The notes under the pieces were generated by a model that worked only from the letters and a program-made list of their open reading frames with translations, was not told the DNA's origin and made no database searches. From assembly GCA_026391215.1 (NCBI GenBank), contig JAPLDX010000068.1:16879-80878 (forward strand): a stretch of 64,000 nucleotides of DNA, given 5' to 3'. The position numbers and the translations under genes are program-made. Of the stretch, positions 13,015-47,546 are shown piece by piece. Position 1 is the stretch's first letter. Every line of letters starts with the position of its first letter. Source of the DNA: Bacteroidia bacterium (GTDB taxonomy: Bacteria > Bacteroidota > Bacteroidia > Bacteroidales > VadinHA17).

Positions 13015-14394
13015 ATGGAAAAAGTAATTGTTGGCCTGTTAACTGTTTTTATGGTATTGGCACTCGGCATTGGCGGATGTTCGTTCTTTGGTAAGAAGAA
13101 GGAGCTCAAGCCATTCACCTCTGAAGTCGTTCACCCGGACTGGACCAAAGATATAGTGATGTATGAGGTAAATGTAAGACAATACACCAATGAAGGAACA
13201 TTTGCGGCATTTGCGGAACACCTCCCGAGACTTAAGTCCCTCGGAATTGATGTTCTCTGGTTTATGCCGACTTTCCCTATCGGAGTTGTAAACAGGAAAG
13301 GCGAGCTTGGCAGCTATTATTCAGTAAAGGATTTCATGGATGTTAACCCGGAATTTGGAACGGTTGACGATTTAAAGGATGTTATTGACAAGACCCACGA
13401 GCTGGGAATGTATGTACTGCTCGACTGGGTGCCCAATCATACTTCATGGGATAACCAGCTTACAATTGATCACCCTGATTGGTATGCAAAGGATTCAAAT
13501 GGTAAATTTACTCCTCCCATCGGCACCGACTGGACTGATGTAATTCAGCTTGACTGGTCACAGAAAGGGCTTCAGGATTATATGATTGATGCAATGAAGT
13601 TCTGGGTTAACCTGGGAGTTGACGGATTCCGAGTCGACCATCCGCATAATACCCCCAAAGAATTCTGGGAAAGGGCAAAAGCAGAGCTGAGTGCAATCAA
13701 GCCGGTATTGATGCTGGCCGAACACGAAGGTCCGGGTTTTTTCATGGAGAAGGGATTTGACATGAATTATGCATGGGAGCTTCATCACATGATGAACAGT
13801 GTGGCTCAGGGAAAAGACAGTGCAAATGCCATAATGAAATACTTTAAGAGGGAACAGGCTGTTTACCCGCAAAAAGTTTACCGGCTTATGTTCCTGACCA
13901 ATCATGACGAGAACTCATGGGCCGGAACAATTGATTCCCTGATGGGCGATGCACAGAAAGTTTTTGCAAACCTTATTTTTACGGCCCCGGGAGTGCCTCT
14001 CATCTACAGCGGCCAGGAGACCTGCCTTGATAAGAAGCTTAAATTCTTTGTAAGGGATACAATTGAATGGGATGCATGCGATCTAACTCCATTTTATACC
14101 AGCCTGATAAAGCTGAAAAAAAATAATAAAGCTCTCTGGAACGGAGAATCGGGAGGGCAAATGGTTACAATTAAAACCGACAATAAAAACAAGGTACTTG
14201 CTTTTTACAGGGAGAAGGATGAGAACAGAGTGGTAGTCTTTCTTAACCTTACAAAAAAGAGCGTCTCATTCAAGCCTGTGCTTAAAGGGATTGAAGGTGA
14301 ATACACGGATTATTATGCCGGGGAAAAAGTTTCCCTGCCATTAAGTGTAAAATATACACTTGATCCGTGGGGATATAGAGTTTATGTGAAATAA
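13015..14394 (+). CDS. GH13 alpha-amylase-family lipoprotein
   Basis: Lipobox IGGC; YEVNVRQYT, DWVPNH, DGFRVD (nucleophile), LAE (acid/base), NHDEN. Confidence 0.9.
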   Translation: MEKVIVGLLTVFMVLALGIGGCSFFGKKKELKPFTSEVVHPDWTKDIVMYEVNVRQYTNEGTFAAFAEHLPRLKSLGIDVLWFMPTFPIGVVNRKGELGSYYSVKDFMDVNPEFGTVDDLKDVIDKTHELGMYVLLDWVPNHTSWDNQLTIDHPDWYAKDSNGKFTPPIGTDWTDVIQLDWSQKGLQDYMIDAMKFWVNLGVDGFRVDHPHNTPKEFWERAKAELSAIKPVLMLAEHEGPGFFMEKGFDMNYAWELHHMMNSVAQGKDSANAIMKYFKREQAVYPQKVYRLMFLTNHDENSWAGTIDSLMGDAQKVFANLIFTAPGVPLIYSGQETCLDKKLKFFVRDTIEWDACDLTPFYTSLIKLKKNNKALWNGESGGQMVTIKTDNKNKVLAFYREKDENRVVVFLNLTKKSVSFKPVLKGIEGEYTDYYAGEKVSLPLSVKYTLDPWGYRVYVK

Positions 14395-14396
14395 CG

Positions 14397-14515
14397 GCAC
14401 GTACCCACCCCCTAGCCCCCTCCCTACTGCGTAAGGAGGGGGAATAAATTAATAATCAGCCACATAGCCCCCTTCCTTGCGTAGCAGGGAAGGGGGTTGG
14501 GGGATGGGTACATGC
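14397..14515. repeat. Inverted pair of GC-rich hairpin repeats (REPIN/MITE-like, no gene)
   Basis: Left arm GCACGTACCCACCCCCTAGCCCCCTCCCTACTGCGTAAGGAGGGGG (14397-14442); right arm 14468-14515 is its near reverse complement; 25-bp spacer. Confidence 0.85.
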
Positions 14516-14563
14516 AGTTCAGGGATGGGGGGTAGATTACTACGTTGTTCAAATATTATTATA

Positions 14564-43960: not shown

Positions 43961-45334
43961 TTAAAATCCGGTCACCTTCCATCCTTTCCGGTAATCTCGG
44001 CGAAGGTATTTATTAGCTTCAGGATAGTTTGTCACAGCCATTTTCCCGGCATTCCATTCCAGCAATGTATCCGGGACGCGGATTGCCACCGTACCAAGGA
44101 GAATTGCCTCTGTCATCGGTCCCGTCTGTGCGAAATGAGATTCAGTCTTAGGGCCGCCCAGGCAGGCAACTACAAAGCTGTGATAATGATTACCGGCTTC
44201 GAATTCAGGTATTTTATAATTTGCGAATTTACTTTCGGGTAACAATACAGGAAATTCATCATGCGGATTAAGCAGGGCTCCTTCAGTACCAATAAGCATT
44301 GCGGATTCAGCGGGATATTCTTTTCCCGCATATAAGTCACGTACTTCCGTGGGAGGATAAAACTCTCCATCGAACCATTCCAATGGAAGAACGTCAGAAT
44401 CCGTTTTATCGTTTCCCGGAAACATCCATGTTATATGATCACCCTGGGGCCAGTTATCAGTTCTTCTTTCAGGTGAATCCTTCCATGACTTCTGAACTTC
44501 GGCTATAACAGATATAGGTGGTTTCAATCCAATACCTTTCCAGACAGCATCAAATATATGGCATCCGATGTCGCCTGACCAGCCAGTTCCAAAGTCCTGC
44601 CATGCTCTCCATTTTGTCTGATGATATATTTCGGGAGCATAAGGACGCATAGGTGCAGTGCCGATCCAGATGTCCCAGTTCAGATTTGCCGGAGCTGCCT
44701 GTCCCTGTGGAGGACGTGGTCCAAAAAGGCGGTAATTTTCTACGGCACCAGGGCGATTGGAACAGAGATATGCATGCTTTATCTTGCCAATGGCACCGTC
44801 TTTAATTAGCTGGACCGCTGTCAGGTCACCTTTTCTCGAGGCAATCTGAGTGCCAAGCTGGGTTATCACTCCATTCTTCACTGTTGCTTCTGTAAGGGCT
44901 CGAACCTCTGCCACATCATGACACATTGGTTTCTGGCAATAGACATGCTTTCCCATCCTGATAGCCATCATGGCAATCGGGAAGTGATTATGATCCGGTA
45001 CAGTAACATTGACAGAATCAATATTATTCTCTTCTTTCCTGAGAAGCTCGCGCCAGTCGGAATAAGTACGGGCATCAGGAAGAATTTCAGAGGCCTTCTT
45101 CAGATTGTCAGCATCCACATCGCATATTGCGACGATCTGTACATTCGGATCCTCTTTGAATTTATTAAGGTCTGACCATCCCATCCCCCCGACTCCTATG
45201 CAGGCATGATTAAGCTTGCCGTTTGATGATGGGGCATTCCCTGAGCATCTGATTATGAGCGGTGCGCCAATTGCGGCAGTTGCAGCCGTTTGTATAAACT
45301 TCCTTCGTGATAATGAATTGTTATGGTTTGTCAT
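43961..45334 (-). CDS. Tat-exported Gfo/Idh/MocA oxidoreductase
   Basis: SRRKFI, IGVGGMG, PDHNH, CQKPM, WRAWQDFGTGWSGDIGCH; likely start ATG 45334. Confidence 0.9.
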   Translation of the reverse strand: MTNHNNSLSRRKFIQTAATAAIGAPLIIRCSGNAPSSNGKLNHACIGVGGMGWSDLNKFKEDPNVQIVAICDVDADNLKKASEILPDARTYSDWRELLRKEENNIDSVNVTVPDHNHFPIAMMAIRMGKHVYCQKPMCHDVAEVRALTEATVKNGVITQLGTQIASRKGDLTAVQLIKDGAIGKIKHAYLCSNRPGAVENYRLFGPRPPQGQAAPANLNWDIWIGTAPMRPYAPEIYHQTKWRAWQDFGTGWSGDIGCHIFDAVWKGIGLKPPISVIAEVQKSWKDSPERRTDNWPQGDHITWMFPGNDKTDSDVLPLEWFDGEFYPPTEVRDLYAGKEYPAESAMLIGTEGALLNPHDEFPVLLPESKFANYKIPEFEAGNHYHSFVVACLGGPKTESHFAQTGPMTEAILLGTVAIRVPDTLLEWNAGKMAVTNYPEANKYLRRDYRKGWKVTGF

Positions 45335-45400
45335 GGCCTGATGGATAATATTAAATGCTACATAAAATGCAAGTAATGCAAGATAAGAAATTTTGCAATT

Positions 45401-45987
45401 CATGTACTCACCCCCTTCCTTCGCTACGCTCAGGTTTTCCCCCTCTCTGCTGAAGCAAAGAGGGAGAAGGATTCACCTAATAATGTCGTAGATTTTGTAT
45501 TTTTATATTGTGTTAAAAAAATATGTCTCAATCTAAGAAATTTGATATTAAAGGAATTAAGAAGCATGCTCAAGACCTGAGAAATAATATGACTGAATCT
45601 GAAAAACTATTGTGGAGAGAGCTTAAGGGAAGGAAACTATCAGGTTCTAAGTTTTTACGTCAGCACTATATACTTTATAAAGGCAATTTAACGAGATACA
45701 ATTATTTTATTGCTGATTTTTATTGTTATGCCCGGAAAGCTGTGATTGAACTTGATGGCCCGATTCATGATACTTCAGTCGAATATGATCAATTCAGAGA
45801 TTCGGAATTGCAGGAACTGGGTTTTCATATTTTACATATCAAAAATGAAGAGCTATCAAATATAAAAGAAGTTCTTTGTAAAATCATTTTATTTCTTAAT
45901 CGAATAAGCAAATAATCAACTAATTACACGAACTTACTCCCCCCTCTTTGCTTCAGCAGAGAGGGGGGCTGAGGGGGTGAGTACGTG
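45401..45987. mobile_element. Putative mobile cassette: DUF559 nuclease gene between inverted CAyGTAC-tagged hairpin repeats
   Basis: Left CATGTACTCACCCCCT...CCCCCTCTCTGCTGAAGCAAAGAGGG (45401-45464); right CCCTCTTTGCTTCAGCAGAGAGGGGG...AGGGGGTGAGTACGTG (45942-45987) is its reverse complement; mobility is inferred. Confidence 0.6.
45523..45915 (+). CDS. DUF559 / Vsr-like PD-(D/E)xK endonuclease-domain protein
   Basis: AQDLRNNMTESEKLLW, FLRQH, IADFYC, IELDGPIH, DQFRDSELQELG; visibly AT-rich. Confidence 0.88.
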   Translation: MSQSKKFDIKGIKKHAQDLRNNMTESEKLLWRELKGRKLSGSKFLRQHYILYKGNLTRYNYFIADFYCYARKAVIELDGPIHDTSVEYDQFRDSELQELGFHILHIKNEELSNIKEVLCKIILFLNRISK

Positions 45988-45994
45988 TTGTACA

Positions 45995-46022
45995 AAACAA
46001 AAACCCCGCTTTTGGCGGGGTT
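45995..46022 (-). terminator. Intrinsic terminator of the 46074-47546 gene
   Basis: Minus strand AACCCCGC-CAAAA-GCGGGGTT followed by TTTGTTTT. Confidence 0.8.
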
Positions 46023-46073: not shown

Positions 46074-47546
46074 TTATCTTATTCTATCATTTTCTTCAGG
46101 TTTTTCAGGTTTATCAGCTCGTCTGGTAACAGTTTCGGTTTTGGTCTCAGCCGGAGCACTTTTGCGTTCCGGCTGGCTTTCTGCAGGTCTGGAAACCTTG
46201 GGAGCTTCCTCTCTCTGAGCTGGTTCAGGTCTGCTGACGACTCTTTCAGCCGGCTCCGGCCTGGAGATCACCCTTTCCTGAACTGGTTCAGGTTCCCTTC
46301 TGGTCTCAACAGCCTTTTCAGACGGTTCAGGCCTTGAAGCTGGTCTCTCATAACCGGTGTCAGCCGGTCTGCGAACCGGGGCAGAAGCTTCATCTGAAGA
46401 GGACTTCGTCACGGGCCTTTCCTCAACAGTGGTTGTTGACCTTCTTACATCTCCTGTATTCTGATCAGATGATGATTTTATTACAGGTCTATCATCAACA
46501 GTTGTGGTTGATCTGCGTGAGGTACCTGTGCTCTGACGGTTGGAGGGATCAGTAGCGCTCCTGCTGTTTGTAACATTATCTGAACGTCTGGTGCTGCCTG
46601 TGGTGTTACTCGTAGTTGCCTGGTCACGGGTTGACTGAGAGACTGACCTTCTGGTCTGGCTGATAACGGGAGTATTCTCCTGTGTCCTTTTTTCCTGATC
46701 AGGATGAGTTGAGGTGAAAAGAACCTCGCCATCACGCCTCTGTTCAGGGTGTGAATAAGTGGATTTATATTTACCGTCATTGATGTTATGGTCAATTTGC
46801 GGTGAATGTGAACGTATCCCTGAGTAATAAAAGTCATTATATCCATGGTAGCGGGGATGATCCCAATGATGGTAATGATTGTAGTAATGATGGCACCAGT
46901 TATAATGATAACCGTAGTAGTAGTGCCAGTAGTATGGCTGCCATGGATCCCAGTAAGGAGGGTAATAACCCCAGTACCATGAAGAATGCCACATGACATA
47001 ATCAGGGTAATACATGAATCTTATCATCGGCCAGTCGGCTATTTCATAAAAATCAGTATAAACAATGGTTACATTGCTCTTACTGTTCTTCTTACCCAGG
47101 TAGCCGGGATTAGGAGTCTCCTTGTAATAGGGCTCAATTATATAATTCTGTCCATACAGAGCTTCGTCGCCAATAAGCTGTATCTGAACGGAACCATCGC
47201 GGAACTTCTGAACTGTAAATACTGCAACATCCTGGAATTCATTTTTAGCCAGGGCAACACGCAGTACTATGGTATGTACATCACCATCGACATAGTCAGA
47301 AACCATTATATAATCAACATAATTGTCGCTGTTAAGGTCGAGGTTGTTGATCTTTGAATTCTGATCATTCAGGCTTCTTTCAAAACCTTCAAGCGTTTCT
47401 GACTCCTGGAACAGTTTCATAACTGCATACAGGTTAAGATTATCACCAGGCAGTCCCAGGTACTCGTCAGGATATTCCTGAGCCATAACTGTGGTCCCGA
47501 AAGCGACCAGGACTGCGAGAATCGATGTGATTATGAACTTTTTCAT
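46074..47546 (-). CDS. Secreted hypothetical protein with EF-hand-like DLNSDNYVDY motif, Y/W/H-rich middle and repetitive disordered tail
   Basis: Signal peptide; GDNLNLYAV, INNLDLNSDNYVDYI, IGDEALYG; about 24-aa RRS repeats in the tail. Confidence 0.8.
   Translation of the reverse strand: MKKFIITSILAVLVAFGTTVMAQEYPDEYLGLPGDNLNLYAVMKLFQESETLEGFERSLNDQNSKINNLDLNSDNYVDYIMVSDYVDGDVHTIVLRVALAKNEFQDVAVFTVQKFRDGSVQIQLIGDEALYGQNYIIEPYYKETPNPGYLGKKNSKSNVTIVYTDFYEIADWPMIRFMYYPDYVMWHSSWYWGYYPPYWDPWQPYYWHYYYGYHYNWCHHYYNHYHHWDHPRYHGYNDFYYSGIRSHSPQIDHNINDGKYKSTYSHPEQRRDGEVLFTSTHPDQEKRTQENTPVISQTRRSVSQSTRDQATTSNTTGSTRRSDNVTNSRSATDPSNRQSTGTSRRSTTTVDDRPVIKSSSDQNTGDVRRSTTTVEERPVTKSSSDEASAPVRRPADTGYERPASRPEPSEKAVETRREPEPVQERVISRPEPAERVVSRPEPAQREEAPKVSRPAESQPERKSAPAETKTETVTRRADKPEKPEENDRIR

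Follow-up and report, generated by a model that had tools for sequence, protein, structure and literature searches.

The described systems that lie closest to the locus considered here are repetitive extragenic palindromes (REPs) and their REP-associated tyrosine transposases (RAYTs), in which a short tag stands beside an imperfect palindrome, one gene lies between two such units in inverted orientation, inverted doublets without the gene occur by the dozen and can each be folded as one long hairpin, every enzyme lineage has its own repeat family, and no target duplication is made. These features recur in an element of 597 nucleotides (nt) at positions 45396–45992 of the window, by which is meant the whole 64,000-nt stretch of Bacteroidia DNA that was analysed (contig JAPLDX010000068.1 of assembly GCA_026391215.1); an earlier note on this DNA had likened the layout, tagged palindromes inverted around one gene, to REP-RAYT units, and this likeness is confirmed. 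The unit is a discrete mobile insertion, and it is read here, with a probability of roughly one half, as a copy of a REP/RAYT-like selfish element whose cognate enzyme, a nuclease of the DUF559 family, acts on the folded arm while host replication and repair complete the move. However, the gene between the arms encodes a predicted PD-(D/E)xK Vsr-like nuclease instead of a HUH Y1 transposase (PF01797), the tag reads GTAC-YCAYCCCC, i.e., (CAY)GTACYCAYCCCC, rather than GTAG or CGTC, and other REPs accompany the genome's true RAYT-like genes. The 'GTAC' tag has no occurrence in the main text of PMC3733652.

Alternatively, the element can be compared with homing endonucleases, since I-Bth0305I (3r3p) has the same nuclease fold and EDxHD motif, and the element's gene, like those of EDxHD homing endonucleases, would be selfish, spreading by means of the DNA cuts that its product is expected to make. 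I-Bth0305I differs in its N-terminal NUMOD/helix-turn-helix modules, its location in a group I intron of phage recA and its one conserved target, as given in the available portion of PMC3239194. The element's nuclease is a bare domain of ~130 amino acids (aa), free-standing and intergenic, which lies between tagged hairpins and has gene-less copies at ~50 unrelated intergenic sites. Pairs of miniature inverted-repeat transposable elements (MITEs) and insertion sequences (IS), such as Correia and Nezha, likewise combine short copies with fewer gene-bearing long copies that have the same terminal inverted repeats, and the present family includes one clear internal-deletion derivative (C128:9213); however, it has no DDE or other transposase and no fixed-length target-site duplication as in MITEs and DDE-type IS, and homology of the spacer links short to long copies in 2 of 45 cases alone. 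IS200/IS605 elements (e.g., IS608), which are single-strand 'peel and paste' elements, resemble it in the absence of target duplication, in imperfect subterminal hairpins that have a conserved irregularity, and in an association with other hairpins, whereas neither TnpA (Y1) nor TnpB is found inside the element, its ends are mutually inverted repeats (those of IS608 are not), and it lacks a conserved 4–5-nt target motif beside one end.

Finally, Vsr and VsrA belong to the same superfamily, and the hairpins of the element offer a T·G mismatch, which is the type of substrate used by Vsr; the nuclease might conceivably recognise T·G. Unlike Vsr, the gene has no linked cytosine methyltransferase gene at this locus and is multi-copy, patchy and pseudogenising, while its aligned relatives in the PDB, 3hrl and 3r3p, are shorter than Vsr. 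Having neither a HUH nor a DDE enzyme and no target duplication, the element falls outside both REP/RAYT and IS/MITE as these are defined, although it behaves like the former and has the appearance of an IS with its MITEs. Its enzyme is akin to EDxHD homing endonucleases but has neither an intron or intein setting nor a single conserved target. Tagged hairpins around DUF559 genes, together with copies that lack the gene, are undescribed in the literature searched, which lies outside supplements and subscription journals, and the arrangement is not described in the available text of PMC3239194, PMC3733652 and PMC1189080.

The inserted unit and its nuclease

The element (35.3% G+C) consists, in order, of a tag, an imperfect hairpin, an AT-rich 130-aa DUF559 open reading frame (ORF), an inverted hairpin and an inverted tag, and a GFO/IDH/MocA oxidoreductase gene of the minus strand starts on one side of it, while a bidirectional terminator (46002–46022) lies on the other. 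Insertion is seen in near-strain evidence from assembled contigs of public sequencing runs. A contig of run X5, which belongs to a different study, joins 45395 to 45993 and leaves out 597 nt, three letters (CAA) fitting both sides of the joint; this contig and the left-arm-bearing contig of run X4 have a 9-nt deletion at 45366 in common. Moreover, among the metagenome oxidoreductase loci surveyed (n = 80, 65–85% protein identity), none carries a DUF559 gene at the site upstream of the oxidoreductase, and three keep the upstream neighbour, namely the near-identical L124 and L125 (84%) and L127 (82%). All three have a spacer of 110–145 nt with the terminator and without the element; by blastn, their homology extends up to 45373–45389 and resumes from 45995, so that the homologous blocks are 11 nt apart in L124 versus 621 nt in the window. 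The X5 join and the blastn borders together place the element at ~45396–45992, about 8 nt beyond GTAC on each side.

The description and the predictions of the earlier note fare well against these data, while its proposal that the nuclease is the mobiliser or processing enzyme of the repeats is supported in part. Its description of a DUF559 ORF between inverted GC-rich tagged hairpin arms is borne out by the sequence, inverted-repeat and Pfam results, and empty sites that join the oxidoreductase upstream region to the terminator near 45995 exist as it predicted (X5, L124/L125 and L127). The tag and arm layout that it gave for 45401–45987 stands, while the span itself is slightly too small at both ends. 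Its statement that no convincing target-site duplication is visible holds across the family, as no duplication above chance is found in 48 copies at offsets of 0–12 and lengths of 2–6; at this locus, the ambiguous 3-nt CAA is the most that could be one. The flanks of the 48 family members have no common target sequence beyond the element ends, and no conserved 4–5-nt target motif is seen beside one end. A palindromic target, which the empty site TTTTG|CAAAA might suggest, was dropped as a general rule, for the left flanks and the reverse-complemented right flanks of the 48 copies agree like unrelated pairs.

In same-genus genomes, the oxidoreductase upstream region is without the element in five of five examined, which are not true empty sites because synteny is lost there; accordingly, no true empty site for this locus is found among the same-genus genomes (≤79% nucleotide identity). 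A gene-less copy elsewhere in the window, at 14401, gives a comparable result: the element is absent from the orthologous spacer in G202 and G022, and in G176 this spacer holds another family's double hairpin. In G227 (C122, L205), the spacer that corresponds to the copy at window 14393–14519 holds a GTAC-type doublet in the opposite orientation, closer relatives being without it; these opposite copies are due either to a hot spot that was hit twice or to a flip in place.

The arms of the element are closely matched. The left outer tag CATGTACTCACCCCCT (45401–45416) returns at 45972–45987 as its exact reverse complement except at the Y position (CAC), the outer arms being exact over 13 nt and extending to 26 nt at 81%, and the inner arms (45439–45469 and 45937–45967; 31 nt) are 94% complementary. 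The linker of 22 nt at 45417–45438 is extra to the left arm and absent from the right one; modules like TCCTTCGCTACGCTCAGGTTTT occupy the same place in C128:9213, C74:34494, C133:58125 and C101:29936. Against an expectation of 0.00, the window holds two occurrences of the 24-nt inner core, and the 13-nt tag, with up to two mismatches allowed, has six matches in the window against 0.64 expected, a number reached in none of 100 shuffles. The DUF559 ORF has a G+C content of 30.8%, compared with 55–65% for the arms and 41.8% for the window, and it is the only ORF of at least 60 aa inside the element. As folded DNA, the right arm has a free energy (dG) of -13.1 kcal/mol (z -2.8, plus strand), and the left arm has a z of -1.3. 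No T-run follows the hairpins, and a terminator scan finds the host terminator at 46002–46022 alone; an Rfam scan returned three matches (mir-885, RsaJ and sR14), all far under the gathering score. A sigma-70-type promoter scan of the leader, the model of which does not cover Bacteroidetes-type promoters, gave nothing above shuffles.

The encoded protein matches Pfam DUF559 (PF04480) with an E-value of 1.2e-26 and 93.2 bits against a cut-off of 20.6, covering profile positions 3–108 of 109. Residues D65, E76, D78, H82 and D89 are invariant in 23 sequences, with E76, D78 and H82 lying in 'ELDGPIHD', and the catalytic roles of these acidic and histidine residues are assigned from the available text of PMC3239194. 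A profile of the local DUF559 proteins finds 3hrl (E 7.7e-26) and 3r3p (E 6e-5) in the PDB. Similarly, an AlphaFold (AF2) model, with a predicted local distance difference test (pLDDT) of 86 and a predicted template-modelling score (pTM) of 0.78, has a restriction-endonuclease-like alpha/beta fold, for which Foldseek returns 3hrl (template-modelling score, TM, 0.81; E 1.9e-6), followed by 3r3p (TM 0.70), PvuRts1I and 1vsr (TM 0.45). Of these, 3hrl is a Neisseria structural-genomics protein with no function assigned, and 3r3p is the catalytic domain of I-Bth0305I, which the accessible part of PMC3239194 describes as a Vsr-like 'EDxHD' homing endonuclease that forms a dimer and cuts a pseudopalindromic site with 2-nt 5' overhangs. 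VSR, DUF559 and 3r3p are placed in one clade in the portion of PMC3424549 that was available. The available part of PMC12907096 reports that VsrA, a DUF559 protein of Caulobacter, causes DNA damage in vivo and that a methylase mutant depends on it for the DNA-damage response; action of VsrA at T:G mismatches is a proposal of that paper. Judged by sequence and predicted structure, the protein of the element is a Vsr/EDxHD-type PD-(D/E)xK nuclease with an intact active-site motif.

The repeat family and its nuclease clade

The source assembly (G000) comprises 3.39 Mb in 135 contigs, of which the window represents C111. Motif GTACYCAYCCCC occurs 47 times on the plus and 39 times on the minus strand, 86 occurrences in all, in 54 clusters, whereas the same motif read backwards, as a control, has none in the genome. 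Most clusters are convergent tag pairs 111–262 nt apart, and 48 are complete units of the form tag-hairpin...hairpin-tag, 45 of them gene-less. In a doublet, a CAY-tag is followed by a linker, a hairpin, an AT-rich spacer of ~25 nt, a second hairpin, a linker and a tag-RTG; among 56 tag pairs, the positions -3, -2 and -1 before the tag are C in 43, A in 49 and Y in 46. The element has polarity, because the two halves differ in their linkers, a T-rich linker of at least 4 nt on one half being paired with a linker of up to 3 nt on the other in 35 of 48 units. In 80 of the 97 hairpins that follow a tag, a single C·A mismatch lies 4–5 nt from the loop on the tag strand (T·G on the other), and just 7 of the 97 are perfect. 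The stems around this fixed mismatch co-vary (CTCTcTGC/GCAaAGAG, CTCCcTGC/GCAaGGAG, CTTCCcTGC...), and the mismatch is present when an arm self-folds alone and vanishes when the two arms pair together. As single-stranded DNA, the copy at 14401–14511 folds into one long hairpin with a dG of -33.8 kcal/mol (z -5.8). In the 262-nt copy at C128:9213–9474, the left linker (at 90% identity) and the gene's 3' end (at 72%) are still present, which makes this copy an internal-deletion derivative; the spacer homology of the 14401 copy covers 24 nt.

Copies also nest within one another. Nested copies in this genome and in G215 begin, by eye, ~8 nt before GTAC, and truncated outer copies are found at five loci (C8, C3, C29, C87 and C16), each truncated unit being made up of the tag, linker, 5' arm and loop, with the next copy starting ~8 nt before its GTAC (also by eye). 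Since the truncated units end there, the breaks lie at the hairpin loop, 1–2 bases from the mismatch; as read from the sequences, they could reflect insertion into hairpin loops of the family's own kind or template switching at the hairpin. At L198–L201 of G215 (C26, C168, C78 and C243), three to five terminal units of 29–42 nt (tag, 5' arm and loop) are stacked in tandem in an onion-like arrangement at one end of an element or at both. A mini-insert of ~50 nt with a perfect hairpin of its own (AAATAGCCCaccGGGCTATTT) nests in GTAC-family hairpins, either in the loop or in an arm, at four loci (C80:13743–13916, C38:81761, C118:30788–30958 and C132:5365–5538). C3, C123 and C133 hold copies that are situated at the end of a contig.

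The genome holds nine DUF559 loci, all of them bracketed by tagged hairpins of at least four different families. Four of the nine form one clade and lie between GTAC-tagged arms, and the other five lie between tagged G+C-rich hairpins of other families. Arms of the C109/C64, C88 and C125 types each match 7–12 other loci, some of the C125 matches being FtsX paralogues, and the C38-type arm matches three; the upstream flank of C88 matches itself alone, and the C109/C64 type also has gene-less doublets. Gene orientation relative to the polarity of T-type and C-type arms is 8 versus 7 among the 15 loci that can be classified by eye. Because the gene occurs in both orientations and the G227 copy is flipped, either the interior or the whole element inverts or re-inserts.

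A further layout is seen at C125:18653–19114, C38:110804–111166, L089, L091, L107, L057 and L088, where the gene lies between two direct double-hairpin elements or behind a duplicated FtsX 3' end. The direct flanking repeats of these other-clade genes measure 115–160 nt at >90% identity, and in C125 and L089 the final ~55 nt of a gene for an FtsX-type permease are duplicated upstream of the DUF559 gene. From the sequences, this layout resembles what would arise if a cassette of gene plus repeat had recombined at a repeated target.

In a scan of species-representative genomes, 80 DUF559 loci were found, 74 of which have enough flank for repeat scoring. An inverted-repeat score of at least 16 is reached in 44 of the 74, versus none of 66 controls displaced by 700 nt. 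Orthologues of the nuclease with 54–71% identity occur at 18 loci from different metagenome-assembled genomes (MAGs) labelled Bacteroidales/Rikenellaceae; at all 18, the CAYGTACYCACCCCC tag and a mismatch hairpin stand on both sides over a span of 444–712 nt, and all 36 flanks align to the arm of the window at 73–96%. In a quick maximum-likelihood tree of 88 DUF559 proteins, the 24 arm-bearing rows (21 with both arms and 3 with a single arm, of which at least 2 lie at a contig end) make up exactly one clade, with a Shimodaira–Hasegawa-like approximate likelihood ratio test (SH-aLRT) value of 93, and none of the 64 other rows has these arms. Other clades, including those of Patescibacteria and Fraserbacteria, have tag-plus-hairpin inverted repeats of their own. 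Both expectations of the earlier note, that DUF559 homologues would be enriched for flanking inverted repeats and that the arm family would co-vary with the protein tree, are thereby upheld. Synonymous sites of the ORF are saturated (pS, 0.59–0.96), and the median ratio of nonsynonymous to synonymous differences (pN/pS) is 0.31 over 136 pairs, from which it follows that the protein is maintained under purifying selection and, given arm identities of 73–96%, that the arms are better conserved than silent sites. Arms thus co-vary with the nuclease clade and, by these sequence comparisons, are under constraint. One clade-A row, L048 (60% identity, with an arm of the GTAC type), belongs to a record that bears the label Chloroflexota, all other members being Bacteroidota; it reflects either horizontal transfer or a binning error. 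In viral contigs, the 22 DUF559 loci are all at ≤40% identity, and none belongs to clade A.

Published data point in the same direction. According to a table in PMC9881135, of which part was available, 'DUF559 domain-containing protein' is 14.3-fold enriched among predictions of programmed inversions that are based on inverted repeats; as far as that table goes, this fits flanking inverted repeats being general for DUF559, and such hairpins probably underlie the 'programmed inversion' signal of DUF559 genes.

Distribution was examined in an order scan of 150 genomes, about one per family, and a genus scan of 80 genomes. The tag is at background throughout the order scan except in G066 (12 matches) and G149 (4 matches), and in the genus scan its count is patchy, from 0 to 159 per genome. 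The clade-A gene (E 1e-33 or better) is present in 26 of the 80 genus genomes, and ~6 of 34 clade-A matches have internal stops, G000's own included. The closer the protein of a gene-bearing genome is in identity to the nuclease of the window, the higher the tag count tends to be (rho 0.50), which is expected if the tag drifts with the protein. A mismatch-hairpin pattern, picked after the result for the exact tag had been seen and giving 0 control matches in 81 genomes, correlates with the gene at a Spearman rho of 0.54, or 0.40 after two hairpins per gene are subtracted; mismatch hairpins beyond these are present in 23 of 26 clade-A-bearing genomes and in 24 of 54 genus genomes where the gene was not found.

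Mobility and its competing explanations

In the favoured reading, the window element would be a gene-bearing member of a selfish repeat family of Bacteroidales, of which the gene-less doublets of 111–262 nt (~48 in the genome) would be non-autonomous, REPIN- or MITE-like members. Its cis parts would be two inverted ends, each composed of CAY-GTACYCAYCCCC, a linker (T-rich on one side, 2–3 nt on the other) and an imperfect hairpin. The nuclease would bind its own arm family and would nick or cut at or near the hairpin loop or mismatch of an arm that is extruded or single-stranded. Host replication and repair would then copy or move the element without target duplication, often beside or into other hairpins, and the inverted arms would let the interior flip. 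That the nuclease cuts the arms, where it does so, and that cutting drives mobility are steps we infer.

Several observations weigh against this reading. The empty-site contig of X5 is a single one of depth 7.6 with 46 nt on its shorter side and is flagged 'between: not known', and the cross-species empty sites come from taxa in which the oxidoreductase is just 82–84% identical in protein. Direct-repeat scores of at least 16 are reached in 43 of the 74 DUF559 loci, and at many loci of other DUF559 clades the gene lies between two whole double-hairpin elements in direct orientation; this layout is explained at least equally well if a gene cassette was inserted at repeats that were already there. 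Tag and clade are not strictly one-to-one, because in G186 GTAC tags enclose a DUF559 gene of another clade with its own inner hairpins. Spacer homology to gene-bearing interiors is found in 2 of 45 gene-less copies, with no signal in the other 43, and most short copies thus cannot be shown to derive from long ones. The count of exact tags and the presence of the clade-A gene are uncorrelated in the 80 genus genomes (rho 0.11, p 0.35), the gene being present in 8 of 19 genomes with at least 7 tags versus 18 of 61 with fewer (Fisher p 0.40), and such p-values overstate, as the genomes are related and not independent. Mismatch hairpins still occur in the 24 of 54 gene-less genomes mentioned above, up to 20 per genome (G184 has 20, G195 has 18 and G185 has 14), where incomplete assemblies may hide genes. 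Moreover, we know of no way in which a PD-(D/E)xK nuclease performs strand transfer, and mobility must therefore lean on host functions.

More broadly, and only tentatively, DUF559 proteins could largely be the enzymes of a new class of mobile elements, in which a bare Vsr-like nuclease stands in for the transposase, with clade-specific mismatch-hairpin ends, REPIN-like swarms, nicking at the T·G/C·A mismatch of a self-folded arm and host machinery to finish the move; such a class would span Bacteroidota and at least Patescibacteria and Fraserbacteria. If the selfish-element reading is true, DUF559, a widespread family with a solved structure (3hrl), would gain a role, REP/RAYT-type genome-resident repeat systems would have a second enzyme class, and a PD-(D/E)xK nuclease of ~130 aa would sustain a repeat family without a transposase, which bears on the relations among homing endonucleases, MITEs and REPs. 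Such an enzyme could also find practical use as a small nickase, specific for sequence or structure, that acts on a defined hairpin. For annotation, it matters that these hairpins lengthen neighbouring ORFs and break assemblies.

The explanation that survives best beside this one, although it is unlikely, is a homing-type parasite, in which the repeats are an independent REP-like family that spreads by other means and DUF559 is a free-standing homing-endonuclease gene with the repeat as its target; its product would cut gene-less copies, so that repair from a gene-bearing copy would insert the gene between the hairpins or between adjacent repeats. The closest characterised relative is indeed a true homing endonuclease, I-Bth0305I, according to the available text of PMC3239194. 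The gene is always central in the doublet and takes either orientation relative to arm polarity in almost equal numbers, many genomes have repeats without the gene, and the look of a deletion derivative is confined to the two short copies with spacer homology. Similarly, the whole direct repeats and the duplicated FtsX 3' end of other clades (C125, L089) are the trace expected of cassette recombination at a repeated target. The perfect co-variation of arms and clade over the 88 tree rows does not discriminate, as homing predicts it too. However, arms and gene are absent together at this locus, both in the X5 contig and in the syntenic relatives, which obliges homing to assume a two-step history, and no other mobiliser of the repeats was found.

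The search for such a mobiliser bears on a further alternative, in which an unseen transposase, for example a Y1 enzyme of the IS200/IS605 type or one whose gene fell into an assembly gap, mobilises the arms in trans and DUF559 is cargo with some other role, such as Vsr-like repair or defence. The lack of target duplication and the subterminal imperfect hairpins are hallmarks of Y1/HUH single-strand transposition, the genome has seven Y1_Tnp loci (PF01797, IS200/RAYT-like), and an assembly of 135 contigs with family members at contig ends leaves room for a missing gene. Each of the seven loci, however, has its own different palindromic repeats and none has GTAC-tagged arms, so that the repeats do not map to a RAYT or IS200/IS605 gene of this genome; such a mapping is what the earlier note had named as refuting its proposal. 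Convergent tags up to 1500 nt apart enclose nothing but short spacers or DUF559, and a second gene type between the arms was never seen. At 18 of 18 loci in other genomes, these arms are accompanied by the same cargo clade, and different arms go with the other DUF559 clades; random cargo would not show such a constant match of gene and arm, and a passenger role is altogether improbable.

There is an equally slim chance that the arms serve at the RNA level or in housekeeping, as a transcript stem for RNase III-type processing, insulation or termination (cf. rRNA intervening sequences) or as ordinary REP-like terminators beside a host repair enzyme whose DNA substrate they would not be, for although other small genes are bracketed by other inverted repeats (C101:36595, C36:24638, C107:6297), the T·G position would be a G·U wobble in the RNA of one strand and short copies lie just 3' of stop codons (e.g., window 14401), the insertion/absence polymorphism, multiple and pseudogenised copies and patchy spread over the genus (0–159 tags) are traits of selfish DNA, and the hairpins have neither T-runs nor an Rfam family at threshold; an RNA-level role could nonetheless exist in addition to DNA-level mobility.

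Feature coordinates and minor observations

Table 1. Coordinates of the element, its parts and related loci. Plain positions are those of the window; entries beginning with C are contigs of the source genome.
Feature	Position	Strand	Basis or remark
Whole element	45396..45992	.	X5 contig join; L124/L125 and L127 spacers
Left terminal extension CAATTCAT	45396..45403	+	CAY directly 5' of GTAC, conserved family-wide
Left outer tag GTACTCACCCCCT	45404..45416	+	Motif GTACYCAYCCCC recurs across the genome
22-nt linker module TCCTTCGCTACGCTCAGGTTTT (long T-type) between tag and hairpin	45417..45438	+	
Left imperfect hairpin arm CCCTCTcTGCT-GA-AGCAaAGAGGG	45439..45469	+	C·A mismatch on + strand, T·G on - strand
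AT-rich leader, 53 nt, 20.8% G+C, 5' of ORF; promoter presumed	45470..45522	+	
Predicted DUF559/Vsr-like (EDxHD-type) PD-(D/E)xK nuclease ORF, 130 aa, intact	45523..45915	+	Pfam, PDB profile, fold
Right imperfect hairpin arm, reverse complement of left arm	45937..45967	+	T·G mismatch on + strand
Right outer tag GTACTCACCCCCT read on - strand, short C-type linker TCAG (4 nt)	45972..45984	-	
Right terminal extension GTGTTGTA	45985..45992	+	
Gene-less 111-nt family member (tag-hairpin-25-nt AT spacer-hairpin-tag)	14401..14511	.	Directly 3' of the stop of ORF 13015-14394
Gene-bearing GTAC-family copies	C111 (window), C16, C29 (in-frame TGA), C3 (contig-end cut)		
Y1_Tnp loci	C31:312, C101:10667, C119:58523, C100:45544, C93:6, C57:21299, C62:7196		

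Several of the Y1_Tnp loci lie between palindromic REP-like repeats of their own in the classical REPtron layout, so that both systems are present in one genome. On the left of the element, the longest oxidoreductase ORF (43961–45403, minus strand) begins at the CAT of the left tag and thereby acquires a spurious N-terminal extension of 23 codons; its overlap with the tag is an ORF-calling artefact, since orthologues start at the ATG at 45334–45332, a start to which the twin-arginine signal (SRRKFIQ) also points. On the right, the neighbouring gene at 46074–47546 (minus strand) encodes a protein of 490 aa that has no Pfam match, with a His/Tyr/Trp-rich middle and a long Ser/Thr/Arg/Pro-rich tail, and that is conserved at 65–68% identity in three related metagenome contigs.

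Other small genes of this genome also lie between repeats. For instance, a PDDEXK_3 'GxxExxY' gene at C101:36595–36945 stands between inverted repeats of the CGCAAAG type, and two 23S_rRNA_IVP four-helix-bundle genes (C36:24638–24952 and C107:6297–6446) are bracketed by tandem 7–8-mers; small genes bracketed by hairpins may thus be a wider phenomenon in this genome.

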